From positions 96,001 through 160,000 of the IMG/VR virus record IMGVR_UViG_3300040801_002290: a stretch of DNA of 64,000 bases; one strand, written 5' to 3'. The notes under the pieces were generated by a model. It saw only the letters and a program-made list of their open reading frames with translations. It was not told where the DNA came from and searched no databases. Of the stretch, positions 3,617 through 41,853 are shown piece after piece (position 1 is the stretch's first letter; every line of letters begins with the position of its first letter). This stretch comes from a virus. The position numbers were made by a program, and so were the translations under genes.

Positions 3617-3674
3617 TACTTACTCACCTCCCCTTTAGTATTATGTTGATTATTTTTGGTCATCTTCTATTTCC

Positions 3675-9298: not shown

Positions 9299-10714
9299 TT
9301 AGATTACGTTTTCCTGCGCTACGTTAACGATTAGGAAGTTAAATTCCGGGGCGCGTGAGAACAAGGAGGATACGTGGCGGATAGCGAAGTCGCGGTTTAG
9401 GGTCTGGGGTAGCGGAACCTGCTCAAGCGGAATCCACTGTGCAAGCATGGTGGTCATAAGGTCTACACCAACTACGAATCCAGTTCCGGGGACCTTGCGG
9501 TAAGTAAAGGTACCGTAAGCTGAAACAAGGGTCTCGTGTCCGTCGTCAACTACGTTGACAGTTCCACCAGCGTATACAGGAACCTTCTTGAGGAACTTGA
9601 AGTCGCCGCCAGCGTCGGAACGGTAAACAATTAGCCACTTGGCACCGGCAGGAACAGTTGCTACAGCAAGCTGAATCTGCTGTCCAGCAGTTGGGGTTAC
9701 GGGTGCGCCAGCTTCTACGGCTTCGGACTCTCCGTTGAAGTTAGCTGCCTTTACCATGTAGTTATACTCGATTGCCTCAAGACCGGCGTTTCCAGCAGCG
9801 TTGGCCTGAGCGGTCAAGGTTACTGCGGAAGGTGCGGCTGGACGTGCGAATTCTCCACCAGTGTTACCGAAGCCCTGGTCAGTGAACTTGTGCCAGTCAC
9901 CAAGGAAACGGTCGGTTACTAGCTCGGTCTCACCGTAAGCAGAGATGTAGGTCTGGGCATCGGTTCCGAGTACGCCAGCTACGCGGTCTGCCTGGGTGGT
10001 ACGAGCAATCTGGTAGAAGCTCTGCTGTAGGTTAATCTTGTCAACAGGTGACATCATAACTACGTTCGGGCGAGCAAGTCCCTGGGTTAGGTAGACCTTG
10101 TTCTCTGCGGCCCATAGAGCGTTTAGAGAAAGCGGGCGTCCACCCAAGTCAGTTACGTTCTGCGGGGCACCGCGCTTGACGATGTTCTCAAGGCCGTCGA
10201 ACTGTAGGTTCTGCGGGCTGGAGAAATCGGTTGAACCGAAGCGGCGGTCTCCGTGGAAGAGTAGGTACTCGGTTTCTTCCATGACGGCAACCATCTTTTC
10301 GGTGCGGGCGGTCTGCTCGGCGGTCTGAACACCGGCACGGGTGGTGGCAACAGCCAATTCCGTGATGGTGATGCGGTGTCCGAGTAGGGTAGGTAGGGTG
10401 CGCCTACGGGCTACTTCTACTTCGACGGTACGAGGAACGCCACCGTCGCGGTATGCGGCGTAACCAATCTTGTCCTGACGGCTGGTTACGACGTTGTACT
10501 CATGCTCGTAAGCAGTGGCCTGAATCTTCTGGAGCCTGTCGTAGAACGGGGTTTCCAAAATGTTTAGACGCTCTAGTTCACCTTCTAGGTCCTGACGCTC
10601 CAAGCTCTGGGCAACCTGGCTGGTTCCGTCAATGGCCTTAAGAACATCTAGGGGCAGATGCTCTAGGTAATCTAGGTGGTCTGCGTAATTTCTCTGAACG
10701 ACTTCTTTAGACAT
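9299..10714 (-). CDS. Major capsid protein precursor
   Basis: 471 aa between protease and neck genes; DVLK|A...LERQDLE and EYLLFHGD...QFDGL resemble K/A511-type capsids; C-ending codon bias. Confidence 0.92.
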   Translation of the reverse strand: MSKEVVQRNYADHLDYLEHLPLDVLKAIDGTSQVAQSLERQDLEGELERLNILETPFYDRLQKIQATAYEHEYNVVTSRQDKIGYAAYRDGGVPRTVEVEVARRRTLPTLLGHRITITELAVATTRAGVQTAEQTARTEKMVAVMEETEYLLFHGDRRFGSTDFSSPQNLQFDGLENIVKRGAPQNVTDLGGRPLSLNALWAAENKVYLTQGLARPNVVMMSPVDKINLQQSFYQIARTTQADRVAGVLGTDAQTYISAYGETELVTDRFLGDWHKFTDQGFGNTGGEFARPAAPSAVTLTAQANAAGNAGLEAIEYNYMVKAANFNGESEAVEAGAPVTPTAGQQIQLAVATVPAGAKWLIVYRSDAGGDFKFLKKVPVYAGGTVNVVDDGHETLVSAYGTFTYRKVPGTGFVVGVDLMTTMLAQWIPLEQVPLPQTLNRDFAIRHVSSLFSRAPEFNFLIVNVAQENVI

Positions 10715-10736: not shown

Positions 10737-12395
10737 TTATAACTTGCCTTTATCAGCCATCTTGACGAAGTGCTTGAATTCTGGCTCTGAAAGGTTTAGG
10801 GTTTTTTGGGCCTCTTCCACAATGCGGGCGCGTTGCTGAGCATGTGCCCCAGTGTGTCCAATGATTGAGCGGTACTTTTCAGTGAATGACTTAAGTACCG
10901 TCTTGTCGTACTGTCTCTCTTCCCCGTCCTCAGTCACAGCCTTGATAACATCAAGCTTGGCTACCTCTGCGGCTTCTTCACCAGTTACAGAAGCACCTGG
11001 ATGTACTATTCTAGGCGATTCTTTTGAAGATGTCACGCTTTTGGTAACGATAGTGCTTTCTTCGGACAGCTTAGTGACAATACTTGCTGCGATTCTCTCT
11101 TCCATGTCGGCAAAGCCGCTCTGGAAAATAGACTTTAGGGCCTCGCCAAACTGAGTTGCAGAGTCTTCTGAAAGACTTACGGTTAGAGAGTCGAGGGATT
11201 CCTTAATGACCGACTTGATTATATCGGTTGGGGGTTCCGTAGTTACTTGCTCTTCGACAGGAGCTTCTTCCATCATTTCAGTAGCCTGAGAGGAGTCCGT
11301 TAGCTGCATGACCAAATCAATAAGGGTATCAACCTTATCCAATAGCATCTGAACGGAGGCATCCCCGTCTCCTGCCATTGCGTCAACTTCCTGACCTTCC
11401 TCAGAAGTTACTAGGCTGTCTAGCAAACCGCCAGCATCCTCTTCTCCTGCCTCAGCAGCACCTAGTTCTGCCATTTCCTCGGCTCCACCCTCTTCCATAG
11501 CGCCTTCTTCCTCACCAGCGAATGGTGCCTCAGCAGGGGCTTCTTCCATGGGTGCGCCTTCGGCTTCTGGAGCGGCTCCCTGAGCCTCTTCCTCTTCCAC
11601 CGGAGGGGCAGCTTTTAGTACAACTTTAACATCTTCTGCCATAGCGTTTCTAATTTCCTCCTTAACGTTTACATACGATTCGAAAACGTGAGTGGTTCCG
11701 TCCCCACCCTGAACGGTTGATTTTATAACCAACCTATCGTTTTCTTGGTCAAACAGCACGGAATCTGGTGCGATTGTGTGGTACTGAACTTCTTTTGTCT
11801 CCTCTTCATCGACCAGCATACTCTTTAGCACAGACGCCCAAGTCTTTGTGAATGGGTTTACGGGCTCCGGGGTCATAGACACTTCGTAAAGAAGAAGCTC
11901 TGGCAAATAGGTAACGTACTTACCCTTTTTGACATCGTACTCCCTACGAGGACTACCAAGATATTTAGCACCGATGGAGAGGCCGATTTGGTCGGCAAAG
12001 CTTGTGTCCTTGTTAGTAAGGAACTCCTCCCACATCTTTCTTGCCATCGGGTGAGACTTATTGAGAATTCCCTTGATGTATAAACCTTCTGGTCTAATCT
12101 GTGCATCAAGGGGCTTTCCAATTGGGGTCTTTAGACTTAGAATTTCGTCCTTGGAAAATCCGTACTTGCCCAACCAGTCATCATTCTTCTTAGCGTAATC
12201 GTGGTCGAAGTATATCTTTCCGTTGGACTTGAAAAACTCTATGGTCTGGGAGAAACTTTCTGGGTATACAACCTCACCGAATAAATCTACATCGGCGGTA
12301 GAAGCAATGCCTTCAAAGACCCAAGGCTCTTCTTCATTAGCTGAAAAAGATTTGGTAATGTCTACGGGCATGTAAAAATGAAAATTTCTATCCAT
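10737..12395 (-). CDS. Prohead protease fused to acidic scaffold
   Basis: First ~190 aa HK97-type protease (EGIAST..VDLFGEVV, YFDHD, PIG, GLSIG, EVSMTPEPVNP); rest E/A-rich with many xKS sites. Confidence 0.88.
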   Translation of the reverse strand: MDRNFHFYMPVDITKSFSANEEEPWVFEGIASTADVDLFGEVVYPESFSQTIEFFKSNGKIYFDHDYAKKNDDWLGKYGFSKDEILSLKTPIGKPLDAQIRPEGLYIKGILNKSHPMARKMWEEFLTNKDTSFADQIGLSIGAKYLGSPRREYDVKKGKYVTYLPELLLYEVSMTPEPVNPFTKTWASVLKSMLVDEEETKEVQYHTIAPDSVLFDQENDRLVIKSTVQGGDGTTHVFESYVNVKEEIRNAMAEDVKVVLKAAPPVEEEEAQGAAPEAEGAPMEEAPAEAPFAGEEEGAMEEGGAEEMAELGAAEAGEEDAGGLLDSLVTSEEGQEVDAMAGDGDASVQMLLDKVDTLIDLVMQLTDSSQATEMMEEAPVEEQVTTEPPTDIIKSVIKESLDSLTVSLSEDSATQFGEALKSIFQSGFADMEERIAASIVTKLSEESTIVTKSVTSSKESPRIVHPGASVTGEEAAEVAKLDVIKAVTEDGEERQYDKTVLKSFTEKYRSIIGHTGAHAQQRARIVEEAQKTLNLSEPEFKHFVKMADKGKL

Positions 12396-12411
12396 ATATT
12401 CACCAGAGTGT

Positions 12412-12441
12412 ATAGTATCATAAAAAAAGAGGAAAAATCAA
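12412..12441 (-). promoter_or_regulatory. Promoter TTGATT-N18-TACTAT (extended -10)
   Basis: TGA-TACTAT upstream of the protease-capsid operon. Confidence 0.55.
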
Positions 12442-12464
12442 TGTATTTCGTCTGTGTTTATATT

Positions 12465-14558
12465 TTACTTCTGTGGCTGTGAAAAACTCAACCCAGGGAT
12501 AAAATTAGAGGACTTTTGTGCGTTCCCGAAAAACTTTAGAACCTCAACCATGTCTGCTTGTTGTGGTCTGCCGCCTTTTTCTGCCATAAAAAGCCTACCG
12601 TTGTCTTTTCCGCGAAGAAGAGTGATAGACTTAGCTCCGTCTGAGACCTGGAATGCAGAGCCTGGAACAACAGTGTTTACCTGTAGCCCCCTTTCTTTTA
12701 CAAAGTCTGTGAAGTCTGTTAGGAAAGGAGTATCATCCTTATGAATAAAATCCTTAAACCCAAATACTCCTATTTCAGGAGTGGGCTCCTCTGACTCTTC
12801 AAGATTATTTTCGATAACCTTTCTGGCCTCGCGCAAAGCCTTCATTCTAGCCTTTACCGCACTTTCTCTGTCACTCGTCTTCTGAACGAAAACCTCTCCA
12901 ACCTTAGCTCCCTCTGGAGAGAATACCGGCCAGGTTCCACTTGGGTCTGGAGTAAGCTTCCACCCTTCGGGTGAAATGAAGGAGTCTCCAACCTTCTCAA
13001 AACCATGCATTGCTACGGGCTTCTTTATCTCGCTTGGGACCTCTAATTCCTTCTTCGGCTTTTCCTCTGGTCCCTTGGGCTTATGATACAGTTTAAGAGT
13101 TCTGTTCTTGTACATAGCCCGCTGTCTAGACTCATCATCAATGATGTTTCCTATTAGGTCTGGACCTTCACCCTTTTGTCTACCGGTGTTAAGAGAGGCG
13201 TCCTTCCACTTATTCTGAAAAGACCTAGCAGATGGATTTTCTTCATTAAGTAGGGAAAATGCGTGAATACCGTCGATTCTTCCCAGTCTGGCAGCTATCT
13301 CTTTCATGGCCTGGACTTTAGCCTGGGTAGTTCCGTTACTGGCTTTTGCCGCAAAGCGAAGGATTTCTTCCATTTCTTGTTCTATATCAACAGACATTCC
13401 GAGAGTTACTTTTCTCTGGTACACAGAGGAAAACTCAGACTTATGAATGGCATGAAGACCCTTAGACCCGTCACTCAATTCGGAAGCAACCATAGCTCTA
13501 TCCTTCTCTGGAATAGAGTCGTATAGTCTGGCTAGGGTGTGAAGAGCAACTCTGTTTGCACCGGCAGCAGGGGAGTTTTTAAAAGCCTTAAATACACCAT
13601 AAAGAGCGGTGGACTCTTCCCTCGTATATTCATCAGGAAGTTCCTGTGGAATACTTTCTCTGCTCATAGTGCTTTCTGCCATAGGCTTCATCGGAACAAA
13701 GGTTTCTTTGCCGGTGGTAAAGTCTTGATACATCATAGAATACTTAGAGTCCAACATCTCAGATAGCTGAGAAAATGACTCGGTGTTATTCCTCATATTT
13801 TCTCGTAAATTCTTAAGACCCAATATGATGTTCGCATCGAAGAAATATTCTCTTCCATCCGGTCTGTATTCTTTATACCGGTCGTTTAGATGCTTTTTGA
13901 GGGTCGGGTAATTCTCTTCAAGTTCTTTTTCGAGAATTCCCTTTAGGCTGATTTTAGAAGGACTCGCCCCGTCCCTTGCCAACTCCGATGCACGGACCAT
14001 AAGAACATCAAAAGCCTGAATTAGAAACCACTCGACAGAGTTTGGTTTAATGTCATTCTCCTTAATTATTCTCTCTGTGTATCCTTTAAGGTAAGACTCC
14101 CACCCCCTGTCGGGTAAATTCTTTCTGGGTACAGTTGACTCCTTATTGGCTTCGTAAGTTTGCTTTCTTTTTTCATGTAAAACGTGTGAAGGTACACCCT
14201 GCTGCTGGGCTTGATTCTCAAGAGCCTGCTGGTAATACTGCTGGGCGTGCTGATAATATTGTTGCCTTTGCTGGTTGAAGGCTTCTTCATATTGCTTTTG
14301 CAATTCTGGGCTTATTTCTGCCGCCCGCTCAAGCACATCTAGCTGGTCCTCAATCTGGTTAAGTTGGGTCTGGTCAGCAGGGTCAATCTCTACCCCCTGC
14401 TCTAAAAGCCATTCGGCATATTCCTCGGCGGTAACCTGAATAGGGGTTACTTTTCCGTTGATATTTCTGAATATGACGTGCTTACCGGAATCATCTAAAT
14501 AAAACTCATCCGTTGCACGAACAGATTTTAGTATTCTAAGTGACTCTATAATGTTCAT
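12465..14558 (-). CDS. Putative internal head/ejection protein (697 aa)
   Basis: N-terminal MNIIESLRILKS, IFRNINGKVTPI motif, Q-rich coil; in the head module. Confidence 0.6.
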   Translation of the reverse strand: MNIIESLRILKSVRATDEFYLDDSGKHVIFRNINGKVTPIQVTAEEYAEWLLEQGVEIDPADQTQLNQIEDQLDVLERAAEISPELQKQYEEAFNQQRQQYYQHAQQYYQQALENQAQQQGVPSHVLHEKRKQTYEANKESTVPRKNLPDRGWESYLKGYTERIIKENDIKPNSVEWFLIQAFDVLMVRASELARDGASPSKISLKGILEKELEENYPTLKKHLNDRYKEYRPDGREYFFDANIILGLKNLRENMRNNTESFSQLSEMLDSKYSMMYQDFTTGKETFVPMKPMAESTMSRESIPQELPDEYTREESTALYGVFKAFKNSPAAGANRVALHTLARLYDSIPEKDRAMVASELSDGSKGLHAIHKSEFSSVYQRKVTLGMSVDIEQEMEEILRFAAKASNGTTQAKVQAMKEIAARLGRIDGIHAFSLLNEENPSARSFQNKWKDASLNTGRQKGEGPDLIGNIIDDESRQRAMYKNRTLKLYHKPKGPEEKPKKELEVPSEIKKPVAMHGFEKVGDSFISPEGWKLTPDPSGTWPVFSPEGAKVGEVFVQKTSDRESAVKARMKALREARKVIENNLEESEEPTPEIGVFGFKDFIHKDDTPFLTDFTDFVKERGLQVNTVVPGSAFQVSDGAKSITLLRGKDNGRLFMAEKGGRPQQADMVEVLKFFGNAQKSSNFIPGLSFSQPQK

Positions 14559-14827
14559 AGATAATCCAAGTTAGTTGCTGGGAATCCAAACCTCTGTGCC
14601 TCTACTTTCAACTCTTCAATCCATTCGATTAGCTCTGCTTCTTCTAGGGTGGGATATTCTCCCTTTAAGGCATAGAAGGATTGTAGGAAGTCAAAATACT
14701 CGTTGAATAGGGTGCCTTCCGGGTCAGAGATTTCTTTGGGCATGTGATGAGTAACTACGTCAAAGTCTCTTTGCGCGTACAACTCAGTAAGTGTTCTTAA
14801 CGCGAAGCGTCTCTCTTCATCTATCAT
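14555..14827 (-). CDS. Hypothetical acidic protein (90 aa)
   Basis: 4-bp overlaps with both neighbours, indicating translational coupling. Confidence 0.7.
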   Translation of the reverse strand: MIDEERRFALRTLTELYAQRDFDVVTHHMPKEISDPEGTLFNEYFDFLQSFYALKGEYPTLEEAELIEWIEELKVEAQRFGFPATNLDYL

Positions 14828-17800
14828 AGTCGTCCCGCCTCTTCCTCTCTAATCCTCGGTCTGTATTGAGACATTCTCTTCAAGAAGGACATTGCTTCCT
14901 TCTCGTCAATATCATCTTCTTCCTCAGAAGCACCAGTAAGAACAGCGCCCCTGGTCTCAAGCTCCATCTTGCGCTTCTTCTGTTCTACTTCCCTCATATA
15001 TTGACATATACCATCTGGAACTACAACTGTTACCAGATTTTCTTGGCTGGGACTTCTATGGAATCTGCCCTCATACTGACCAGCCTTGGCTGAATTCCAT
15101 GTAGCAAGCCTAAAGCTTCTGGTAGAAGGAAGAGAAAGTCCGTAAAGTCCAGCGGAGGTAACGATAGTAATTACTGGTCTACCAGTTTCTGTCTGGTGCC
15201 TCTTCTGCTTCACGCTAACTTCTTCCGCTGGAGTGTCACCGTCAATAATCTGAATGACTGCCTTATCCCCGTATTTTTCTAGAAGCTTTCTATACACAGC
15301 GTTCATGGCAACCTTTGAGAACCCGGCCACACCAATTTTCGGAGGCTCTCCGGGAACTTGGTTAACAATCTCTGTCTCAATTCCATCTACAATAGAATCA
15401 AGAATTGGAGCATCCCACGAAAATACCGCTCTGTCCATAGCCGCTCTGGATGTTTCACTGAAAACAGCATTGTAGACAGCATTTCTTTCATTTACATCGC
15501 CCGACTTAGGCAAAATTCCTACACCAAATGACTCTTCGGTAACCTGGTTTCTGAATTCAAGCAATTCTTCACGGAATTTTACGTAGTCCTCTGGCTTTAG
15601 AATCTTAGACACTGAGTCCATCAATTCTCTCGCGCCCAAATCGTACTCTATAATTCTGGCTGGGCTCACAGCACCAAGCGAGGCTTGAGTTAGAACACTC
15701 ATTAGACCTAGAGCTTTTCTCATCTTCTTAGCTTCCGCTAGAGCCTGTAGCTTTCTTTCAGCGGCGAGATAAACTTTACCCCAGGTAGAACCCAACTCTG
15801 AGCCTATGTCAGTAGTTCTAGCAAGACCGTACTTATCTCCAGCGATTGTTTGTCCATCCAGAGTATAGATTTGCGGTCTAAACGTAGAAGTAAAGTCATT
15901 CATTCTTCTGACATCCTTCCAGATTCTTCGCCCCAAATCCTTAGATGCTCTAGTTTGCTGAGCATCGTGGTCCTTTTTAGTGTATTCATGCACCACAGTG
16001 TTGTAGTTATCCCTAACCAACTTATTTATAAAGGAAACCTCGGACACCGTATCACTAGCTGAGTTACCAGAAATATCACCGTTAAGGCTCCAGGTCAATC
16101 CTCCACCCTGATAAGTGGACTCAATAATCTCATGCAAAGCAGTATGTCTGGAGGAGCCTGGGTTTACGTATTGGCCCGACTCATCTATTACTATAGCGGA
16201 GACATGTCCCCCAGCTACGGGCTTTTCTCTATAAGAGCCCCCCAAGGCAAGAAGCTTCATGTACTGAGCATCTAACCCTAGCAAGTCTTCTTCCTCACCG
16301 GAGGTGTATCTGAACTTGGAGCTACCCAAAACAATCATGTTGGGTAGGTTACCAGTCTGGGCTCTGCTAATCAAATCTTCCCACTGGGCGGTGCGGGTCT
16401 CTCTGTCTCCATCAATGACAATAGCGTCTTCGTTTCTGAATTTAGCAATTTCGGACTGCCAAACATAAACATTCTTGTTTGGAGCAGTAACAATGGTTAC
16501 TTGCTCTCCAACCTTGAATCTACCTCTGTTTCTCATAATGGCGTCAGCGGCAGTTACGATAGCTGTCTTTCCAAGTCCGTAGGTAAAGTTTAGAAACTGA
16601 CCATGCCAACCCTGTGGTCCACCATAAATCTCATACTGAGACTCTTCGGTAAGTGCAAGTATTCCTGGACGCTGATAGTCAAACGGCTCCATAACGAAGT
16701 TTGCATAAAGTCCGTGCAAGTCATCCAGGGGAATCTTACCGGCCTCTTTTGAGATTTCATGTCGCCCGGTAACTTCGTTATACTCAGCCGTCATTGCCTT
16801 TATCTTCTTCATGTTCTCAGCGGCTAGTTTATACTTCTCTACGTACTCGGCACTTCTAGCCAGGTCCAGAGTCAGGCGTGTAGATGACATCTGATTAATC
16901 TCCATGTTGCCCTGGCCCGGAAGTGAAAACTTAAATCCGGAGGAAACATCTAAATTCTTTTCCGTCTGAACTACTCCACTCTCAAGACCTGTGATTAACT
17001 GAGGTGTCAACCCCGTGATAGAGGCATACATTTCTCTATCTGATTCATCAATGCCTAGGGTATCAAAAACATACCAAGAAAGTTTCTCGTACCCCTCGAT
17101 GGGCGGTGGCCAGTTCTCTGAGAGTAGTGCATACCCCGTAGTTGGAGAATACATAATTCTTCCGGGGGAAAGCGAGGTAGGTGTTGGGGCTTCTGGAACA
17201 ATTTCTTCTTCCCGTGGTTTCATTACCTCAGAAAGACGCTTACCAGATTGAGGCTTGAAATCAGTGTAATAGTACTCGCCTTCTTTTCTCTCTTCGTAAA
17301 CCTTCTCGTCTGCTCCGGGGTGGTATTCCTGAACATACATGTCCATATTTTCTTTGTCGGATTGGCGTTCTTCCGGAGACATATTTTCATAGGGGTTTTC
17401 TACTAAAGTCCAATCGGCATCTTCTTTGTCGATATTAGCGTTTATCCAACCACCAGCGGCGATAGTCCTTCCGTCTGTATGGACGGCTATATACCCTGTA
17501 GGCACACGCCTCACGATTCTTTCGCCCTGAGCATTATTATAAATATCACTAGCGGACTTGGTTACAAGAAAACCTAAGTCTAAAAGATTAATGGATTTAT
17601 GGGTTTCGTTGACAAAGCGGCAGTTATACCCCTTCCAAGAAAGAATCTCTGGCAATGCCTCTAAAAACTCTATTGTGTTCGGATAGACAACCAAAACACC
17701 ATCAGCAAAGAAGTTGGGACCAAAGCGGCCCGGAGCAAGAATGTACGCTTCGGTTGACATTAACCGCTCTATATGCTGCTTCATCTTTACATTGTCGCTA

Positions 17801-17901
17801 TAGACAGAGGTAGTAACAGTACCATCCATCTGATTGTATGGAACAATCTCGGCGGTACTCTTATCCATTGAATCGTTTATTAGGCTGACTTTATAGTACA
17901 T
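14824..17901 (-). CDS. SNF2/SWI2-family helicase-like protein, probably virion-associated
   Basis: FTYGLGKT (Walker A), VTAPNKNVYVWQSEIAKF (Ia), IVIDESG (II), IIDGDTP, TSAGLYGLSL (V), QYEGRFHR (VI). Confidence 0.8.
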   Translation of the reverse strand: MYYKVSLINDSMDKSTAEIVPYNQMDGTVTTSVYSDNVKMKQHIERLMSTEAYILAPGRFGPNFFADGVLVVYPNTIEFLEALPEILSWKGYNCRFVNETHKSINLLDLGFLVTKSASDIYNNAQGERIVRRVPTGYIAVHTDGRTIAAGGWINANIDKEDADWTLVENPYENMSPEERQSDKENMDMYVQEYHPGADEKVYEERKEGEYYYTDFKPQSGKRLSEVMKPREEEIVPEAPTPTSLSPGRIMYSPTTGYALLSENWPPPIEGYEKLSWYVFDTLGIDESDREMYASITGLTPQLITGLESGVVQTEKNLDVSSGFKFSLPGQGNMEINQMSSTRLTLDLARSAEYVEKYKLAAENMKKIKAMTAEYNEVTGRHEISKEAGKIPLDDLHGLYANFVMEPFDYQRPGILALTEESQYEIYGGPQGWHGQFLNFTYGLGKTAIVTAADAIMRNRGRFKVGEQVTIVTAPNKNVYVWQSEIAKFRNEDAIVIDGDRETRTAQWEDLISRAQTGNLPNMIVLGSSKFRYTSGEEEDLLGLDAQYMKLLALGGSYREKPVAGGHVSAIVIDESGQYVNPGSSRHTALHEIIESTYQGGGLTWSLNGDISGNSASDTVSEVSFINKLVRDNYNTVVHEYTKKDHDAQQTRASKDLGRRIWKDVRRMNDFTSTFRPQIYTLDGQTIAGDKYGLARTTDIGSELGSTWGKVYLAAERKLQALAEAKKMRKALGLMSVLTQASLGAVSPARIIEYDLGARELMDSVSKILKPEDYVKFREELLEFRNQVTEESFGVGILPKSGDVNERNAVYNAVFSETSRAAMDRAVFSWDAPILDSIVDGIETEIVNQVPGEPPKIGVAGFSKVAMNAVYRKLLEKYGDKAVIQIIDGDTPAEEVSVKQKRHQTETGRPVITIVTSAGLYGLSLPSTRSFRLATWNSAKAGQYEGRFHRSPSQENLVTVVVPDGICQYMREVEQKKRKMELETRGAVLTGASEEEDDIDEKEAMSFLKRMSQYRPRIREEEAGRL

Positions 17902-18784
17902 GTCCGTAGTCCTTAAGTATACCTTCGATTAGGTCCAACTTCTCAGGAAAAGCTCTTTCAAGATACTTTTGATTGGTGAAGTAAAGAGCGAATAACTCAG
18001 CGAAGTCATCCATTGGTGTGAACTTACTAGCCTCGGTCTTTACCCTTTTCCCCAGACCGCGCTTCCAAACAGTCTCTTCGTTTACGTACTCAAGATAACC
18101 AGCCTGAGTGTTCTCATTAGATTCATGCTTAGACCAACCACTGAATTCTAGTAAAGAGCCTAACTGCTTTATCTTACCATCATGCATGAGTCTTGCAAAC
18201 ATTAGGTGTCCAAGGGAATGAAAAACAGAGTAAGCTGCAACACTAAGTCCCTGGTCTAGCCCTGGAATTTTCCCTATTAGAGGGGCAGAGACATACTTAT
18301 AAAAACTAGGGTAGACTATCAGCTTTCCGGTAAATCCGTTTCCGGAGGTGTACTGAGCCTTGATTACGGTTTCTCCGTAAATAGACAAAGCATCCTGTTC
18401 TTCCCTAGTACCAGCATCCACATAAGATAGACCCAAAGACTTTATGAAACTATCTCTTCCATCAAGAACATCTACCAAGACGGCTGATGAATATTTAGGA
18501 ACATTGGAGTTGATGTGAACCCCGGAAATTTCTGGAGTCCAAGCTTCCAGCCTCTTCTCGTCAACATTTCCTGCATCATCATAAATAGGTAGTTTTTTAG
18601 ACACAAGTCCAGCATTGTCAGCCTGAGCCAAAGAAAGGCTTGACAATTCGTCCATTGTAGGGGCGAACTGACCACCACGGTACACACCGCCGCCCGGTGT
18701 GGGGTCTCCAGGCATAATAGGAGAACCTGGTTCTCCAATTCTGGTTCTAAGAAGCCTTTTGTCAATTTTACCAGTTTCAGGCAT
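17891..18784 (-). CDS. Zincin-like protein with degenerate HSLGH motif
   Basis: VFHSLGHL and downstream DDFAELFALY; N-terminal GGVYRGGQFAP; start moved to ATG 18784 (SD GGAG). Confidence 0.6.
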   Translation of the reverse strand: MPETGKIDKRLLRTRIGEPGSPIMPGDPTPGGGVYRGGQFAPTMDELSSLSLAQADNAGLVSKKLPIYDDAGNVDEKRLEAWTPEISGVHINSNVPKYSSAVLVDVLDGRDSFIKSLGLSYVDAGTREEQDALSIYGETVIKAQYTSGNGFTGKLIVYPSFYKYVSAPLIGKIPGLDQGLSVAAYSVFHSLGHLMFARLMHDGKIKQLGSLLEFSGWSKHESNENTQAGYLEYVNEETVWKRGLGKRVKTEASKFTPMDDFAELFALYFTNQKYLERAFPEKLDLIEGILKDYGHVL

Positions 18785-19124
18785 CTTTATCTCCAAAGCT
18801 GGAAAGAACGTCGTATAGAGTTTTCTCTGCGTTTGGAATCTTCATATTCACAGAGGAAATCTTTTCCTGAAAGTATTTAGCTAAGGACTTTGCGTCGTTG
18901 TCATTGTACACCCTGACATCTCCAAGCCCTAGGTTAGAAAATAATAAATTCTTAGAACCGTCGATTATATCGTCCAGAGAAAAGTTATGAAGAATAGGAG
19001 TGTACCCATCGCTCTTTCTGAGTACATAGGTAACCTCTCCGTCTGAAACGTAAATTTCCTTAAGCTCAAACTTATTGTCTTGATTATACATAACACGAGA
19101 AGATATCTTTAGCATTTCATTCAC
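18777..19124 (-). CDS. Hypothetical protein (about 112-115 aa)
   Basis: Overlaps both neighbours; likely start is ATG 19115. Confidence 0.65.
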   Translation of the reverse strand: MNEMLKISSRVMYNQDNKFELKEIYVSDGEVTYVLRKSDGYTPILHNFSLDDIIDGSKNLLFSNLGLGDVRVYNDNDAKSLAKYFQEKISSVNMKIPNAEKTLYDVLSSFGDKDA

Positions 19125-20605
19125 CCCACGATAATCTTTCTGGCTTTTTCAAAATACCGCTTGATACCTTCAAACTGGTATGGGTAAGAGGACAGGTCCA
19201 AGTTGTAAGAAGCTATCTTAGTTTTAACATTCTCTGGGACAGAGTTTATCATTGAGGAGAGAACCTCTGGATTAGTCACAGAAAAGAAGGTTTGAAAGGA
19301 CTCGGGCGAAAGCTCTCCAAATTCTCCTAGAGAAAGTGTGTCCAATACACCTTCATCCATCGTAAAGTAATCTAGAGAGTGGTTACTGAAAACCTTTCCG
19401 GAAACACTATCCACAGAGAATGAGGACGGGCTGAACCACATGTTTCCAAGAAGAAGTCCGTCTATAACAACCAATGTTGAGATACTAGCCATCAGGTTGG
19501 AAGAAAAACCAGAGGAACGCTTTGATGAAAACACTCTATTAATAATGTCAAGAGTTTCACTAAACGTAGCATCTGAAAATTCAGCCGGGTAAAGTTCTGT
19601 CATCAATGCAATTGTGTTCCTAAAGTCCTTTATTTCTACGACCTCAGGGAAAACTACTTTGGTGCCTTGCAATAAGTCCATCTTTACTTTAGCGGCTATA
19701 GAGGAAAGTAAGTACTTGTTAACCATGTAAGGCTTGTTTACATCATCCTCTACAGCCTTCATGCTATAGCGAGTTTCGCCCTTCTCAAAAATTGCTTTTT
19801 CTGAGAATGGGAAGGTTAGCTGGCTGGAAAGTCTATAGCCCTCTTTGTAAATATCTACCATAGAAACACCGTCAATTATGGTGTTATACCGGGAGGACTT
19901 TTTAAGTATTCTTCTTAGGGCGTTGTAATTGATTACATAACCCGCAAATTTATCATCAGAAACTCTGGCCAAAAGAACGTCTAGGTTTCCAGTTGCAGCT
20001 AAAGAGTCTGCATCGTGACCAAGTGTTTTTGCAAGGGCGGAAATCTTAGAAGCAACTCCGTCTTCTAAGAAAACATGGGCAGAAGATTCATCAAATGAGA
20101 GGGTGGCAACCTCTTTAAATAAAGGAGCCCTACCCGTCATCTCAATAATTCTCTGTAAGTCTCCGTTTACCAACCAGTACTGGTTTGCTTCCTTCCTTAT
20201 TTGCCATCCCTTTAGAATCATCTGCTCTGAGTAAAGAACAATTTCCTTATCTGTCTTGCCATCTAAGTCCTTGTCCTTAAGGTAGTGAAAAATTCCCATA
20301 TGATTCTCAGAACCGAAAATGTTTTCTAAAAGAGCTTGTCTATATCTACTAGCATACCCTAGAGTAAGTAATTTGGAAGCAACATAGGGCTGTAGTATCT
20401 CTTCCAAACTGTCGCTATACAAAGCTACAAACTCCTCTGTAACTATATCTGGTAGAGGAGCTAGCCTATTGGGGTCTCCAAGAGTAGCATAGACAATCTG
20501 CTTCTTTTGGGCCTTTTTGGGTTTGGAGTTTTTAGCCCTCGGTGAACTCTTCGTCACAGTTGGCTTAATGTTATCAAGTATTTTGGAAAAGTCTAACTTT
20601 AGCAT
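19121..20605 (-). CDS. 494-aa protein with possible degenerate PI3K/HipA-like kinase fold at C-terminus
   Basis: Start moved to ATG 20605 (SD GAGG) because the track start lies inside a promoter. IDGLLLGNMWFSPSSF...NHSLDYF is loosely like DxLIGNxDRHxxN...IDHG. CDS confident, fold weak. Confidence 0.55.
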   Translation of the reverse strand: MLKLDFSKILDNIKPTVTKSSPRAKNSKPKKAQKKQIVYATLGDPNRLAPLPDIVTEEFVALYSDSLEEILQPYVASKLLTLGYASRYRQALLENIFGSENHMGIFHYLKDKDLDGKTDKEIVLYSEQMILKGWQIRKEANQYWLVNGDLQRIIEMTGRAPLFKEVATLSFDESSAHVFLEDGVASKISALAKTLGHDADSLAATGNLDVLLARVSDDKFAGYVINYNALRRILKKSSRYNTIIDGVSMVDIYKEGYRLSSQLTFPFSEKAIFEKGETRYSMKAVEDDVNKPYMVNKYLLSSIAAKVKMDLLQGTKVVFPEVVEIKDFRNTIALMTELYPAEFSDATFSETLDIINRVFSSKRSSGFSSNLMASISTLVVIDGLLLGNMWFSPSSFSVDSVSGKVFSNHSLDYFTMDEGVLDTLSLGEFGELSPESFQTFFSVTNPEVLSSMINSVPENVKTKIASYNLDLSSYPYQFEGIKRYFEKARKIIVG

Positions 20606-20623
20606 GTGTTGTCCTCTTTGAGG

Positions 20624-20653
20624 ATTATACCACAGAACTTTAGCGGAGTCCAA
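20624..20653 (-). promoter_or_regulatory. Promoter TTGGAC-N18-TATAAT (extended -10)
   Basis: TGG-TATAAT; -35 sits in the terminator U-tract. Confidence 0.7.
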
Positions 20654-20682
20654 AGAAAAAGCGGGATTGAAGCCCCGCTTTT
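20652..20682 (-). terminator. Intrinsic terminator (possibly bidirectional)
   Basis: AAAAGCGGG-GCTTCAAT-CCCGCTTTTTCTTT. Confidence 0.8.
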
Positions 20683-20702
20683 ATTATAGACTTTAATTTA
20701 TT

Positions 20703-22688
20703 TTATGCCTTATCAGCATCTACAAACTTGCCCTCAGCAGTGACCGTGGTTCCCCTCTTCGGGTGACCTGGTTCGTTTGCGTATTCTTTAGAAGTAAGAA
20801 TTGTATGGGGTGCCTTTTCCTTCATAGCCTTGCCCTGGGCATCAAGAGAATCCTTTCTCTTTTTGTCATCAGGCCAACTGCCAACGTCCGGGTTGTAGCC
20901 TTTTAGAACATCCTCTACAATTTCTGAAACAGACTTCTTGCTATCGTCAAGTGTGGAAAGTACGCCAGAAACGATGTCAAGCATAACGGACTTTAGACTT
21001 TCTCCCGAAAGAATCGCCGCTCTTACCTTGCTGCTAGACTTCTCTTCCTTAGGCTTTGCTTCCTTCTTTTCCTTACTAGCCAGGTACTTATCCTCTCGGT
21101 TAATTACCTTATCTTCCCAGAACTTGGACTTCAATACTTCCTGAACAATGTCTGAGACAATGGACTTAGCTACCTTCTTTACCTTTGGAGTTTGTGGAGA
21201 GTCGTCGGAGTAATCATCGTCGTCGTTATCGTCATCGTCCTTTCCTCCCCAATGGCTGTCGAAGTATGCTCTACCATAAATTCCGCTATCCCCAGGAATT
21301 CCACCACCGGAATTCTTATCATACGCTTTTCGTAATTCCTTCTGGCTCTCTTCTGAGTCTGCAAAACCAGAGCCATCAGAGCCGTGAGAGTGAGGTGGTT
21401 GAACCATAGATTCGCCCTTTGGACCCTTGTATCTGTGGGCTAGTACTGTGGCTGGGTTTTTTCCTGCTGCATCAAGTTGCTCATCCATGTGCTTGGTTGG
21501 GTTCTTAACATCGTGAACAACCGTGTCCTTGGGCATTAGTTTCTTGTCCCCACGAAGAGTGTCCTTCTTGGGGTTGTACTTAGCTCCCTTCACAACACGG
21601 TTTCCGAAAGCACCAACAGCCTCTCGCTGAGGAATTTCGTCAACGATAAAGCGCATTCTAGGACCAAACTCTCTTCTCTCTGAGGTTGTGGTGGGACGAA
21701 CCTTATAAAGACTAGGGTCTGGGTTGTTCCAAGCGCGTGCCTCACTTAGGGACTTAAAAACAATTCCCTTCTTAGTGCCGTGCTTCTTGTCCCAGTTTCT
21801 TGCTGCTTCTGCATCAGTTTTTCCATAATCTAAAGCCGCATCACTCATGCCACCAACCTGTCTCTTTGGCTTCTTGGCATTGAATTCAGCATCGCTCATT
21901 TCTTCTAGCTCTCTGTCCTTTGCGGCGTGGTAATCATAATCCGCTTTCTCGTAGTCAGCGTCTGAAAAAGCCTTTTTAGCGTCTTCCTCCTTAAGGTCTT
22001 CTTTCAGGGGCTTGTTTGTAGCTACTGCATTGTCAATTTCGGCTGCTCTTGCGCCCTGAGGAGCAAACTCACCAAACTTATCGTAATGGTCCTGATAGGG
22101 GTTGGTCTTTGGCATTTTAATGCGAGCCTTCATAGTGTCTGGCTCTTCTGCGGACTTCTTGGTGTCCTTACCCTTACCCTTCATCTTCTTTGCTTTTTCA
22201 TCTACCATTTTTCCAGCGGCGTCATCGTCACCCTTTTCTGGTTTTGATGTGCCCTGAACATCGTCATCCATCTTTGTTTCTTTCGGGGAGAGGTTCTTCT
22301 TGATAGTCTCTCTGACTGACTTGGACACAAGCTCATTGATAGGCAAGTCACTTCCAGAGGACAATTCTTCAATAACCTGTTGAACAATAATGGAAGCTAA
22401 TTTTCTGCCGTGCTTCTTGTCATCCCAGTCCTTAGGGTCAATACCATCAGCGTTTTCAAGCTTTTCTTTCATTGGGGCATTTTTCCCGCTGTGCCCTGGG
22501 TGAGTTCTGGATGGGATTGAATAAGGCTCCTTGGGAACAGTAGATACTGGACGGCCCTCTGAAATAGCTTCATGGGTGGCGTCCATATCCCCCTTTTCAT
22601 AGTCAGGTTTGGCGACGTAACCAGCCAGCTTTACGTCTTCTGACTGTAGAGCCTCTAATAGACTAGTTTTAAGAGCTTCGTAGTCCAT
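20703..22688 (-). CDS. Highly charged internal head/scaffold-like protein (661 aa)
   Basis: K/D/E-rich low complexity with repeated xKS sites and KSxxxIVxEVL motifs. Confidence 0.7.
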   Translation of the reverse strand: MDYEALKTSLLEALQSEDVKLAGYVAKPDYEKGDMDATHEAISEGRPVSTVPKEPYSIPSRTHPGHSGKNAPMKEKLENADGIDPKDWDDKKHGRKLASIIVQQVIEELSSGSDLPINELVSKSVRETIKKNLSPKETKMDDDVQGTSKPEKGDDDAAGKMVDEKAKKMKGKGKDTKKSAEEPDTMKARIKMPKTNPYQDHYDKFGEFAPQGARAAEIDNAVATNKPLKEDLKEEDAKKAFSDADYEKADYDYHAAKDRELEEMSDAEFNAKKPKRQVGGMSDAALDYGKTDAEAARNWDKKHGTKKGIVFKSLSEARAWNNPDPSLYKVRPTTTSERREFGPRMRFIVDEIPQREAVGAFGNRVVKGAKYNPKKDTLRGDKKLMPKDTVVHDVKNPTKHMDEQLDAAGKNPATVLAHRYKGPKGESMVQPPHSHGSDGSGFADSEESQKELRKAYDKNSGGGIPGDSGIYGRAYFDSHWGGKDDDDNDDDDYSDDSPQTPKVKKVAKSIVSDIVQEVLKSKFWEDKVINREDKYLASKEKKEAKPKEEKSSSKVRAAILSGESLKSVMLDIVSGVLSTLDDSKKSVSEIVEDVLKGYNPDVGSWPDDKKRKDSLDAQGKAMKEKAPHTILTSKEYANEPGHPKRGTTVTAEGKFVDADKA

Positions 22689-23914
22689 TATTCCTCCCTT
22701 GCAGGAAGTAAGTCTTCTACTACCTCGTCAATGATGGACTTTAGAATCTGCTCGTCGTCCAACATGCTCTTTAGTGCGTCTACTTTCTTAGCCCTGGCTT
22801 CTACGGCATCGGTGCCACCGTCATCGGACACAGACTCTGGAGCGGTAAGCCCCTGAGTCCTCTTATCGGCTTCGGTGGAAGTAGCAGACTTTAGAGAGTG
22901 TTCGTACCACTCAAAGCGTCCACGAACTACGTACTTAGCGTCTTCACCAAAAAGCTTTCTTTCGCTTTCTGAAACAGGAGCCACCTGGTAAACACCGATA
23001 TCTGGGTTCTTCCAAGCACGGGCTTCATCTACTGACTTGAAGGTCATGTACATGTAATCATCGGCGTCTTCAACGCTCTTACGGGCAGTATTTCCGGGCT
23101 GGGCTAGAACTTCCTTACCTGAGTTATGGTCAGCTTCGTGAGTTGCAGAGTCAACTGCCTCGTCACTTACTGCCTCGCCGTCCATTTCTGGGTCGCGTAC
23201 ATCTGCGGCGGGGGCGTCATGCTCAAACCCGGCCTTAGCTTCTGCGTCAGAAATTGCCTCGTTGTCCCTTAGGGCATGTCCAAAGTCAGCGTTTTCAGTA
23301 GCTTCACCCATTGAGGCGAGAGCTTCTGAATCCTCAAGAGCCTTCATTACCGTCTCTAGGGACTTGATAACCATTTCCGCGTCGGTACTTACTTCACCAT
23401 CGAAATCGTAGGTGTATTCTCCAGCGGACTTTAGGGCGTCCTTCAAAGCTGAGGAAATGTAGTCCTTAACCATCTTATGCCACTTCTCAGTTAGGCACGG
23501 TCCAAAGGAGTCTACTTCCATGTAACCCTTGTCCATCATTACCTTGATAATTTCTCCAACGTCGCTCTTCTTTAGAACATTAACAACGGGGGACAAATCT
23601 TCTTCCATGATAACGTGGCTAGCACTTGGCATTGGGTTAACCGGTGGCAACCCAAGCGGGTCCATGAGGCTACCGTAGGACTTTAGTGTTTCAGTATCTA
23701 CAACCTTGGCATTTGGGTACTTAGAACGCATGAGACGAGCCCAGTCTTCCGCACCAGCAGAAGTCCTCATGCTCTTTAGGACTATAGCTTTCTTCGTCAT
23801 TTTAACTCCTTTTTTGGCCTTTTTGATGGAAGCCTGACAAATAGCCCAAGCGGAGGATTCATCGTGACCCTCGTCCATGAGCTTCTTGACGCATCTGTCT
23901 AGTTTTTCTGGCAT
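22688..23914 (-). CDS. Acidic internal head protein with 10 KS sites
   Basis: ATG 23914; N-terminal CVKKLMDEG...SAWAICQAS; repeated (L/I/F)KS. Confidence 0.7.
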   Translation of the reverse strand: MPEKLDRCVKKLMDEGHDESSAWAICQASIKKAKKGVKMTKKAIVLKSMRTSAGAEDWARLMRSKYPNAKVVDTETLKSYGSLMDPLGLPPVNPMPSASHVIMEEDLSPVVNVLKKSDVGEIIKVMMDKGYMEVDSFGPCLTEKWHKMVKDYISSALKDALKSAGEYTYDFDGEVSTDAEMVIKSLETVMKALEDSEALASMGEATENADFGHALRDNEAISDAEAKAGFEHDAPAADVRDPEMDGEAVSDEAVDSATHEADHNSGKEVLAQPGNTARKSVEDADDYMYMTFKSVDEARAWKNPDIGVYQVAPVSESERKLFGEDAKYVVRGRFEWYEHSLKSATSTEADKRTQGLTAPESVSDDGGTDAVEARAKKVDALKSMLDDEQILKSIIDEVVEDLLPAREE

Positions 23915-23931
23915 ATTTAACACCTGTGGAC

Positions 23932-23961: not shown

Positions 23962-24369
23962 TTAAGACTCAAGAAACCTTTTGAATCTTTCTACCTCGGA
24001 TTTAGAGGGAACATACTCCTTCATATCCGGTGAAGATAAAAATGCCGCGCTTCTTCCGCTTATTTGCATAAGTTCCTTCTTTCCTAGGTATTTCAGTTTA
24101 TGAGTTCTAGTAAAGATGGACAATAGAAGCTTGTCTTTCTTTGAGAGGCTTCCCTTTACTTCTACATATGTTCCGTATGAGGGAAGATAAAAATCCGGTA
24201 GATAGCTTAGACTCTTAGAGAAGAAGAACCTTCTGGGCTCATACATGAAGTATATGTCTCCGTATAGTAGTAGCTTGGCTACGTATACTTCCCATCTACT
24301 TCTGTATTTTATTCCTCTATAGGTAGTTTCAGAACCCTTTTTAAATACTCGTTTTAAAGGCATATTCAC
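23962..24369 (-). CDS. PD-(D/E)XK endonuclease
   Basis: YRSRWE...YEP...YLPDFYLP...YVEVKG. Confidence 0.8.
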   Translation of the reverse strand: MNMPLKRVFKKGSETTYRGIKYRSRWEVYVAKLLLYGDIYFMYEPRRFFFSKSLSYLPDFYLPSYGTYVEVKGSLSKKDKLLLSIFTRTHKLKYLGKKELMQISGRSAAFLSSPDMKEYVPSKSEVERFKRFLES

Positions 24370-24402: not shown

Positions 24403-25071
24403 TTAGTATGTATTTTTTCCCGTTGCGTACGGACCAAAGTGGTCGTACTCAGATTTCGGAGTAGCTCTGCTAATCTCATATTCAAGCATAGCAAGCTGCT
24501 CTGTTGAATACATATCAGATAGTTGAGGCTTGTCTACGATTCTGTCGGACACAGCCCTAACCCCATCAGCAACAGCAAGGGGTAGGGGGTCTACACCATT
24601 GTTGGTAACTCGGTCATAAACTTCTTGGTTATAGAAGGCGTCTGGATTTTCATACGTGCCGCCGCTTTCACTCATGTATGGTGAAACTCTCGGAGCATCA
24701 ATACGAATTTCTTCTCCATCACTAATAATTCCACTAATGTAGGCAGAGTCCTCTACATTAATAGTTTCGCTTTCGGTGCTGTACAGGTAGAACTTAATAG
24801 CCTCCTGTAAGCGTACCGCGTCTTCTGGAGAATATGCAGGAGCAGAACCAGCAAAATCGGTTCCCTCGTAATATAGGTCCCAAGCGGTTGGGTAAAGAGT
24901 AACCATTTCATCGTAGGCTTCTTCACTGCTTAGGTCGAACTCTACTACCTTCCTGTACCTCTCGCCAAGAGAGTCTACAGGGGTATCCAAAGTGATTTTT
25001 GCAGCCGGTACTGGCTGATAAGTGTTTAGGGTATCTAAATCGGTGACACCACCGTATTCATCTCTTGCCAT
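24403..25071 (-). CDS. Acidic Tyr-rich hypothetical (probably virion) protein
   Basis: 222 aa with strong SD AGGAGGAGG and an upstream TATAAT. Confidence 0.7.
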   Translation of the reverse strand: MARDEYGGVTDLDTLNTYQPVPAAKITLDTPVDSLGERYRKVVEFDLSSEEAYDEMVTLYPTAWDLYYEGTDFAGSAPAYSPEDAVRLQEAIKFYLYSTESETINVEDSAYISGIISDGEEIRIDAPRVSPYMSESGGTYENPDAFYNQEVYDRVTNNGVDPLPLAVADGVRAVSDRIVDKPQLSDMYSTEQLAMLEYEISRATPKSEYDHFGPYATGKNTY

Positions 25072-25095
25072 AGGAATACCTCCTCCTAAAGTTTA

Positions 25096-25124
25096 ATTAT
25101 AGCGCAAAAAAACTGGTAATGCGA
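25096..25124 (-). promoter_or_regulatory. Possible promoter TCGCAT-N17-TATAAT
   Basis: Perfect -10 in the intergenic gap; weak -35. Confidence 0.45.
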
Positions 25125-25139
25125 ACTCTTTAGAGATAT

Positions 25140-25439
25140 TTAATACTCTCTCCAGGGGTCTACGTCTCCACGTCTTTCAACAGCCCTGGCGTTTAGGTAT
25201 TCCACAAGAGCGTTAATTGCCCTAAGGGACTCCGCTAAAACCATTTTATGAACAGAGTCTTTGGGGTTTACCAGTCGTTTTTGTATCGCTCGGCTTATCT
25301 CTGTCCATCTCCTAGCTTCTTGCTCTAGTTTTAGAGTTTCGTCTTCCTCGCAGTTGCAGGGGGAAGAAACAACCGGTAGTCTCCAAATTTTTTGCACTTC
25401 AACAGGAATTTCCTTAGTTCTCTCCTTTATTTTTATCAT
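25140..25439 (-). CDS. Hypothetical protein (99 aa)
   Basis: SD AAGGA; co-oriented, non-overlapping. Confidence 0.65.
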   Translation of the reverse strand: MIKIKERTKEIPVEVQKIWRLPVVSSPCNCEEDETLKLEQEARRWTEISRAIQKRLVNPKDSVHKMVLAESLRAINALVEYLNARAVERRGDVDPWREY

Positions 25440-41824: not shown

Positions 41825-41853
41825 ATTATATCCTTAAGGTCAGGAGGTTTCAA
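41825..41853 (-). promoter_or_regulatory. Promoter TTGAAA-N17-TATAAT heading the fibre block
   Basis: Near-consensus; -35 overlaps the end of the CCA gene. Confidence 0.65.

Follow-up and report, generated by a model that had tools for sequence, protein, structure and literature searches.

A putative Lys|Ser maturation code and a protease-scaffold fusion in the head module of an uncultured phage related to Thermus phage phiYS40

Introduction

The prohead proteases of T4 (gp21), phiKZ (gp175) and SPN3US (gp245) process head proteins and ejection proteins, and both the processing and the ejection have been measured (PMC10052503, PMC7411985). In these systems, one consensus runs across the capsid propeptide, the scaffold or core, other internal proteins and the protease itself, the motif allows substrates to be predicted, and cargo is targeted by N-terminal propeptides. 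In phage P1, the Dar proteins DarA, Hdf and DarB are loaded in the head and co-ejected, and the N-terminus of DarA is cut by the prohead protease Pro (PMC12810830). In Herelleviridae (SPO1, A511, phage K), the genes for the portal, the protease, a separate scaffold and the capsid protein follow each other in this order. Here we describe a head module, at 10737-23914 of a 64,000-nucleotide stretch of viral DNA (hereafter the window), in which a prohead protease is fused to a scaffold-like part. We propose that the motif [V/A/T/I]-[L/I/M/V or other]-K|S/A(/G), which often continues with two hydrophobic residues and an acidic one, is probably the site that this S78-like protease of the phage recognizes and cleaves.

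The window covers bases 96001-160000 of a 194,021-bp IMG/VR virus record (IMGVR_UViG_3300040801_002290), which is rated 97% complete and belongs to an uncultured phage; the genes at 10737-23914 are on the minus strand throughout. The nearest named phages are the Thermus phages phiYS40 and TMA, with 51% identity of the major capsid protein (MCP) to that of phiYS40, and synteny with phiYS40 extends to the MCP, the protease, the helicase (gp79) and the 301-aa protein (gp80). No near-identical DNA was found among named phages, and a related-locus search of IMG/VR with the SNF2 protein of the window gave no relatives. Relatives were found via protein look-ups and via the portal. Two closer uncultured ones, L006 (orthologues 58-89% identical) and L007 (39-83%), were available as whole head modules, and both keep the gene order of the window: 411-type, (661-type), 510, 115, 301, SNF2, 90, 697-type, protease-scaffold and MCP.

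Results

Capsid precursor and protease-scaffold fusion

The genes that carry the proposal are the following.

9299-10714, minus strand: MCP precursor, 471 aa, matching PF17236 SU10_MCP (E 3e-15) and phrog_752 (E 2e-64)
10634-10639, minus strand: predicted MCP maturation cut K26|A27, DVLK|A
11823-12350, minus strand: predicted prohead serine protease domain, residues 16-191 of a 552-aa fusion, flanked by the self-sites K15|S16 and K191|S192
10740-11822, minus strand: residues 192-552 of the fusion, its acidic (pI 4.25), scaffold-like C-terminal part, with conserved K225|S, K261|A, K394|S, K421|S, K485|A/S and K502|S

The MCP indeed has the DVLK|A that the initial annotation had placed after 26 residues (DVLK26|A27). 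The site is identical in L006 and L007 and reads TLK|A in phiYS40. The MCP is a member of the SU10/Herelleviridae capsid family. The MCP of SP-10, which is linked to 781 Herelleviridae-type records, matched at 26% identity across 80% of the length (tblastn), and the propeptide ends align as K26|A27 in both the window and SP-10, ALK23|S24 in the A511-type Listeria phage LMTA-34 and VVK23|S24 in the phage K-type Staphylococcus phage Team1. The N-terminus of the A511 capsid protein Cps was reportedly sequenced as Ser24, and the LMTA-34 sequence matches this.

The protease domain scored 20.8 bits with PF04586 (Peptidase_S78), just below the 21-bit cut-off. This was its sole Pfam match at E<=10, where the T4 gp21 family gave none. 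It also matched two head maturation protease families, phrog_32465 (E 3e-21) and phrog_1028 (E 3e-10). By hhalign, it aligned with the prohead protease of Team1 across 164 columns (97.7% probability, E 2e-12). In this alignment, the self-sites K15|S16 and K191|S192 coincide with K16|S17 and K164|S165 of the Team1 protease, and H65 and S140 (in a G-L-S-I-G context), both invariant in 47 homologues, coincide with its His and Ser. After K164|S165, the Team1 protease continues with a stretch like the mature capsid N-terminus (SFLTGHG vs SFQTGYG). The position and composition of residues 192-552 suggest that they serve as the scaffold.

Enrichment and conservation of the motif

The motif [ILVFM]K[SA] was counted in each protein and compared with shuffles of that protein, which kept its composition. 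The 411-aa protein encoded farthest upstream in the region had 9 against 1.83 expected (4 of 100,000 shuffles reached 9, p=4e-5), and the 552-aa protease-scaffold had 8 against 1.81 (31 of 100,000 shuffles, p=3e-4); they ranked first and third among the 254 ORFs (open reading frames) of the genome. The numbers read by eye in the initial annotation, namely 10 KS in the former and 9 KS plus VLKA and VIKA in the latter with one at the end of the protease domain (VLK191|S192), were correct, as were about 8 KS in the 661-aa protein (8 counted, with 7.2 expected from its composition) and three early in the SNF2 protein (K14S, K102S, K115S). In these two proteins [ILVFM]K[SA] was not significant (4 vs 2.8 expected) and below expectation (1 vs 2.2), respectively, and the 697-aa protein had 4 vs 2.1. 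The window ORFs outside the region had 26 against 24.6 expected (p=0.41). Lys makes up 1-3% of the tail and fibre proteins and 6-14% of the head-module proteins, and the sheath would be expected to have 1.1 KS. Hence the contrast between head-module and tail proteins drawn by the initial annotation is partly compositional, and it holds after shuffling for the 411-aa and 552-aa proteins.

With a motif centred on P3, [VAIT]xK[SA], 5 of the 51 ORFs of the window stood out at p<0.1, four of them in the region: the 552-aa protein (9 observed vs 1.9 expected), the 411-aa protein (11 vs 2.0), the 697-aa protein (6 vs 1.8, p=0.008) and the 661-aa protein (8 vs 3.4, p=0.018). Enrichment recurred in orthologues, with 8 vs 1.5 for the 411-type protein and 7 vs 1.8 for the protease-scaffold of L006, 7 vs 1.5 and 9 vs 1.7, respectively, in L007, 6 vs 2.3 for the phiYS40 protease, and 9 vs 3.3 (p=0.004) for the L006 orthologue of the 661-aa protein. 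The orthologues of the SNF2, 697-type, 510-, 301-, 115- and 90-aa proteins in L006, L007 and phiYS40 showed no enrichment. Moreover, in the cultured Herelleviridae the ORF between the protease and the MCP, which is the scaffold candidate, was enriched for [VAIT]xK[SA].

3375-4331 of the Team1 locus (L010): scaffold candidate, 8 vs 1.9 expected (p=3e-4)
3370-4263 of the LMTA-34 locus (L009): scaffold candidate, 8 vs 1.6 expected (p=3e-4)
3241-3903 of the SP-10 locus (L008): scaffold candidate, 5 vs 1.6 expected (p=0.013)

The lysines of the sites are conserved beyond the other lysines of the same proteins. Among the 47 homologues of the protease-scaffold (37-100% identity), conservation of 90% or more is found for 8 of the 11 site lysines and for 4 of the 30 others (Fisher p=6e-4); in the acidic C-terminal part alone, 6 of 8 site lysines and 1 of 15 others reach it (Fisher p=0.0017). 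K15, K191, K394 and K485 are invariant, K394 and K485 being among just 9 invariant columns of the C-terminal part, and K225, K421 and K502 reach at least 90%. In these sites the lysine is followed by Ser, Ala or Gly (P1') and mostly preceded by Leu, Ile, Met or Val (P2), with Val, Ala, Thr or Ile at P3. In the 411-aa family (14 homologues), 5 of 9 site lysines are conserved against 5 of 29 others (p=0.036). Replacement of Lys by Arg is rare at site columns compared with other Lys columns: 0.9% against 13% in the protease-scaffold family, none against 7% in the 411-aa family and none against 15% in the SNF2 family. Such strict Lys without Arg fits a P1 pocket, whereas a structural Lys would accept Arg.

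A position-specific scoring matrix (PSSM) trained on the protease-scaffold sites alone found MCP K26, 11 sites in the 411-aa protein, K115 of the SNF2 protein and two sites in the 661-aa protein, and genome-wide it gave 33 matches with a score of at least 10 against 6.8 in shuffles. Because the protease, its self-sites, the propeptide end and the motifs of the scaffold candidates match those of Herelleviridae, the lysine code appears to belong to this protease lineage rather than being peculiar to this phage. For SPO1-type proteases, no paper giving a Lys|Ser consensus was found in a search of the literature.

The 411-aa and 661-aa proteins and their shared module

Upstream of the protease gene, two related proteins are candidates for further substrates.

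22688-23923, minus strand: acidic protein of 411 aa (408 aa if translated from the ATG at 23914), disordered for the most part; among the candidates for a further substrate cut at several sites, the best one
22904-23053, minus strand: W-x-NPD module of the 411-aa protein, residues 291-340, the sole confidently folded part of its model
20703-22688, minus strand: 661-aa protein rich in Lys and Asp/Glu, possible substrate, with the 411-aa protein as a partial paralogue
21588-21770, minus strand: W-x-NPD module of the 661-aa protein, about 60 aa, residues 307-367, opening with FK|S

In the 411-aa protein, the sites at K50, K81, K165, K194 and K296 show no or almost no variation among the 14 homologues, and cutting at the predicted sites would give pieces of 7-88 residues. 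The protein has a pI of 4.7, and its AlphaFold2 (AF2) model has a mean pLDDT (predicted local distance difference test) of 50.6. Searches of Pfam, PHROG and PDB sequences with the 411-, 661-, 510- and 697-aa proteins gave nothing usable. For the 411-aa model, ESM Atlas gave meaningless matches at a TM (template modelling) score of about 0.25, and VIA-align reached a Z of about 5 at best, to winged-helix pieces across 51 residues. Since it is acidic and disordered and no enzyme fold was found for it, the 411-aa protein is more likely a prohead core or scaffold-type protein than the enzyme-like effector supposed by the initial annotation. Its first ~40 residues (23795-23914, minus strand) form a Cys-containing helical hairpin (…RCVKKL…AWAICQ…; pLDDT 63-78), which is present in about half of the homologues; the others begin at MKKA-VLKS. 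In the 661-aa protein, K312, K508, K520 and K566 are retained in a 58%-identical orthologue, and homologues are few; as a protease substrate this paralogue is moderately supported.

The W-x-NPD module is an undescribed one with the pattern FKS…A..W.NPD…Y.V.P…G…IV…G.(F/H)GN(R/K). It occurs in one to three copies, usually C-terminal, in about 20 metagenomic proteins of 158-921 aa (P0108-P0119). In the 411-aa protein it is modelled at a pLDDT of ~71-81, and the F, K and S at its start are invariant in the 14 homologues. The module may be a portable head-anchoring or nucleic-acid-binding domain. Its FK|S may be structural and not a cut site, and the count of the 411-aa protein would then fall by one or two sites while the enrichment stays.

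The SNF2 ATPase

14824-17901, minus strand: SNF2-family ATPase, 1025 aa, an intact motor by sequence and fold, syntenic with the phiYS40 helicase gp79; candidate packaged enzyme
17515-17598, minus strand: K102-I129 of the SNF2 protein (linker S103-I129 preceded by K102), holding K102|S103 and K115|S116

The motor matched SMARCAD1, ALC1, ISWI and Ino80 in Foldseek (E 7e-18 to 1e-15) and Ino80 in a profile search (E 1.5e-4), and the Walker A residues G442, G444 and K445 as well as D573 and E574 are invariant in the homologues. K102 is found in all 26 homologues and S103 in 25 of the 26, and near position 115 a hydrophobic-K-S/A is kept despite the variable length of the linker. In phiYS40 gp79, TLK103|S stands at the position equivalent to K102|S103. 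AF2 models residues 1-100 at a pLDDT of 78-91 and residues 103-129 below 50. This predicted anatomy is what would be expected for a cleavable loading domain, as a single feature in a well-conserved protein, and K102|S103 is a moderately supported protease site. Packaging of the SNF2 protein in the head is conceivable, though on balance we lean against it.

One SNF2 homologue, P0087 (1405 aa), is ~380 residues longer and carries PF14528 (LAGLIDADG_3), which suggests that the extra stretch is an intein or a homing-endonuclease insertion.

The 697-aa protein, the portal and other genes

12465-14558, minus strand: 697-aa protein adjoining the protease gene, without Pfam, PHROG or PDB match; conserved K11|S12 at 14523-14528
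47705-49981, minus strand: portal, 758 aa, phrog_37955 (E 4e-150), 33 kb from the capsid gene
47708-48337, minus strand: C-terminal tail of the portal, residues 549-758, with 4 KS vs 1.16 expected (p=0.019)
14555-14827, minus strand: 90-aa ORF, syntenic in L006 and L007, overlapping its neighbours by a few bases
17891-20653, minus strand: 301-, 115- and 510-aa ORFs, syntenic in L003, L005, L006 and L007

The position of the 697-aa ORF suggested a portal, which is ruled out by the PHROG matches that put the portal at 47705-49981. At K11|S12, three orthologues, the most distant of them 39% identical, read ILK|S, IIK|S and TLK|A, and the other sites of the protein are not conserved; the conservation of K11|S12 gives moderate support to a cut there. 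The L007 orthologue has 1363 aa and carries PF26820 (Phage_T4_Y00F). The four KS that the initial annotation gave for the portal tail are present, and the portal itself lies outside 10737-23914. NLK|S, xK|S and IYK|S of this tail are kept in three relatives at ~60% identity, LIK|S and also K81 of the portal are not, and the three conserved ones can be regarded as protease sites with a moderate degree of support. In the 510-, 301-, 115- and 90-aa proteins, sites were neither enriched nor conserved.

Near the portal, the 1112-aa protein that follows it (44407-47745, minus strand) and a CCA-adding/HD enzyme (41840-43573, minus strand) have in common an N-terminal hydrophobic-K-[S/G]-x-x-VP-x-GY, which occurs twice in the 1112-aa protein and is conserved in the relatives L011-L013. 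The phiYS40 proteins gp76 and gp77 begin with a similar K-x-VPEG-x-VLY without the Ser. The motif is more suggestive of a small N-terminal domain common to these proteins than of a bare cut site. In a 257-aa protein (43637-44410, minus strand), a copy of the mature capsid N-arm is preceded, at a distance of about 35 residues, by a conserved hydrophobic-K|[S/A/G] (K165); the copy has Arg, Lys or Asn at the position of the capsid P1 Lys, so that the arm is kept and the cut site is not.

A 135-aa gene resembling Holliday-junction resolvases and endonucleases (23962-24369, minus strand; phrog_9019, E 2e-20) is the next gene upstream of the 411-aa gene, in an operon that is otherwise structural, and shows synteny in relatives. 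Outside the window, ~71 kb ahead of its start and remote from the head genes, a charged 246-aa ORF (24639-25379 of the genome, minus strand) contains four of the strongest PSSM matches of the genome and has the arrangement of K|S, a short amphipathic helix and LK|S seen in the 661-aa and 411-aa proteins. This ORF may encode another protein of the head interior.

Discussion

Proposed course of head maturation

From the enrichment, the conservation, the strictness of the Lys, the homology of the protease and MCP, and the alignment of self-sites and propeptide end, we infer the following cuts, together with packaging and any injection. Inside the prohead, the protease would take 26 residues off the capsid protein, trim its own N-terminus after K15 and separate from the scaffold part after K191. 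The acidic scaffold part would be cut into pieces of ~17-133 residues, which would be able to leave. The 411-aa protein, which is acidic and disordered, would be cut likewise, as would probably its 661-aa paralogue, both presumably as co-assembled core proteins; their roles may be akin to those of T4 gp22, gp67, gp68 and internal proteins (IPs), that is, prohead core or internal proteins and not enzymes. The N-terminus of the 697-aa protein and the C-terminal tail of the portal may also be trimmed. The SNF2 protein is possibly a true enzymatic passenger, with its ~100-residue N-domain as a loading domain that could be cut off. In the widest form of this idea, the Lys|Ser protease would serve as an address-and-release system for enzymatic passengers: the SNF2 protein would be loaded by its N-domain, released by a cut at K102|S103 and delivered along with the DNA, the same route may be taken by the 1112-aa protein and the CCA-adding enzyme, and the W-x-NPD module would be a head anchor. 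We regard this extension as speculative and rather unlikely.

Compared with the initial annotation, the reading as protease sites is retained for the MCP propeptide, the N-terminus and boundary of the protease, the scaffold part and the 411-aa protein, where enrichment, orthologues, conservation and the Herelleviridae alignment agree, and with moderate support it extends to the 661-aa paralogue, K102|S103 of the SNF2 protein, K11|S12 of the 697-aa protein and the portal tail. The view of the whole ~13 kb as genes for cargo and scaffold finds no support in the 510-, 301-, 115- and 90-aa proteins.

Alternative explanations

Composition and reading by eye could by themselves give the impression of such a pattern when Lys-, Ser- and Ala-rich head proteins are set beside Lys-poor tail proteins, since the expected counts differ several-fold. 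As a general account this is very improbable: it is refuted for the 411-aa and 552-aa proteins by the scarcity of shuffles that reach their counts, and the enrichment is repeated in three further genomes at conserved sites. It stands, however, for the 510-, 301-, 115- and 90-aa ORFs. It is also possible, but somewhat unlikely in our view, that only the canonical substrates, namely the capsid propeptide, the protease and the scaffold, are cut, that the motifs of the 411-, 661- and 697-aa proteins, the SNF2 protein and the portal tail are unused, and that SNF2 and its neighbours are late or DNA-metabolism proteins outside the head. The SNF2, 661-aa and 697-aa proteins are not enriched with [ILVFM]K[SA], SNF2 helicases are common in phage replication modules (BFVD matches), and the Holliday-junction-resolvase-like gene indicates that the operon is not purely structural. 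Moreover, the SNF2 protein is well conserved overall (57% mean column identity), which makes its invariant KS less telling. On the other hand, no other ORF of the genome is as strongly enriched as the 411-aa one, and its orthologues repeat the enrichment. The KS sites of SNF2 bracket a variable disordered linker, the second one shifting with the linker while the motif is kept, and the site persists in phiYS40, where BLAST otherwise detects the helicase core alone.

The motif might instead be a structural or assembly element, such as a strand-Lys-Ser-helix cap or an amphipathic-helix module, duplicated in scaffold-like proteins for packing on the shell or on one another. An invariant FK|S opens the repeated, folded W-x-NPD module, and the N-terminus of the 411-aa protein resembles a degenerate copy of it, so that two KS would come from repeats; yet without the two copies this protein still has 7 sites against ~1.8 expected. 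Modules of K|S, a ~12-residue helix and LK|S recur in the 411-, 661- and 246-aa proteins, and the N-terminal K-[SG]-x-x-VP-x-GY of the 1112-aa and CCA-adding proteins is part of a small domain in which phiYS40 has Val or Arg for Ser. A structural origin of the motif is nevertheless quite unlikely, because Arg is almost never accepted at the site columns, and because the motif stands where cuts are expected, at the end of the MCP propeptide and of the protease domain, and is kept in acidic linkers that are otherwise unalignable. Several observations weigh against our preferred reading, in which the motif is the site of the phage's own protease. The seven ORFs of the region other than the 411-aa and 552-aa ones had, when pooled, 12 motifs against 10.8 expected (p=0.40). 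A RecA-like protein ranked second of the 254 ORFs by the regular expression, and a clamp-loader-like protein was flagged by it and had two PSSM sites; both were set aside as false positives. The scaffold label of residues 192-552 is without homology support. In the AF2 model of the 411-aa protein, VLKS and TLKS fall on turns from strand to helix, and the FK|S at the start of the W-x-NPD module does not vary among ~30 copies. Finally, K322|A of the MCP is conserved inside the fold of the shell protein, so that the motif by itself is no proof of cutting.

Relation to described systems and significance

The head module of the window appears to be a relative of the Herelleviridae module with a protease-scaffold fusion, whose core, a maturation protease cutting capsid and scaffold, is ordinary; a small number of its proteins are candidate passengers. 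Common to both are homologous MCP and protease, a propeptide of 23-26 residues ending in hydrophobic-K|S/A, aligned protease self-sites and scaffold candidates that carry the motif many times. The gene order differs: here the 697-aa ORF is upstream of the protease and the scaffold-like part is fused, and the portal, which is directly upstream in Herelleviridae, lies far away. No homology is detectable between the scaffold parts, as hhalign of the protease-scaffold and 411-aa families against the scaffold candidate of Team1 gave none. The 411-aa, 661-aa and SNF2 genes farther upstream have no counterpart among the four portal-to-capsid genes of three Herelleviridae loci, the rest of those genomes not having been searched. 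A comparable fusion is gpO of phage P2, in which an N-terminal protease is fused to a C-terminal scaffold and cuts itself, though it is of another protease lineage with another site.

The window phage resembles T4, phiKZ and SPN3US in that one consensus spans the head proteins, for the scaffold-trained PSSM finds sites in the MCP and in the 411-aa, 661-aa and SNF2 proteins. T4 gp21 cuts after Glu, whereas the protease here is S78-like with a conserved P1 Lys; it may work alike without being a member of that group. N-terminal propeptides target cargo in those phages, while the targeting element in the window phage can only be guessed. As in the Dar system of P1, the genes are linked to those of head morphogenesis, an SF2-type enzyme of very large size may be carried inside the head, and the maturation protease may remove an N-terminal piece. 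DarB has a methyltransferase domain, and none was found in the SNF2 protein by Pfam or fold searches; homology to the Dar proteins was not seen, no search aimed at it having been made.

If the Lys|Ser code is true, head-internal proteins would be predictable by sequence alone across phiYS40-like phages and Herelleviridae. Trypsin also cuts after Lys, and native K|S ends would therefore resemble tryptic ends, so that standard virion proteomics would miss the substrates. The cultivable Thermus thermophilus phages phiYS40 and TMA offer candidates, namely self-processing of gp74 and trimming of gp79 at K103|S104. An SNF2 motor in the virion, if true, would be a new kind of phage passenger.

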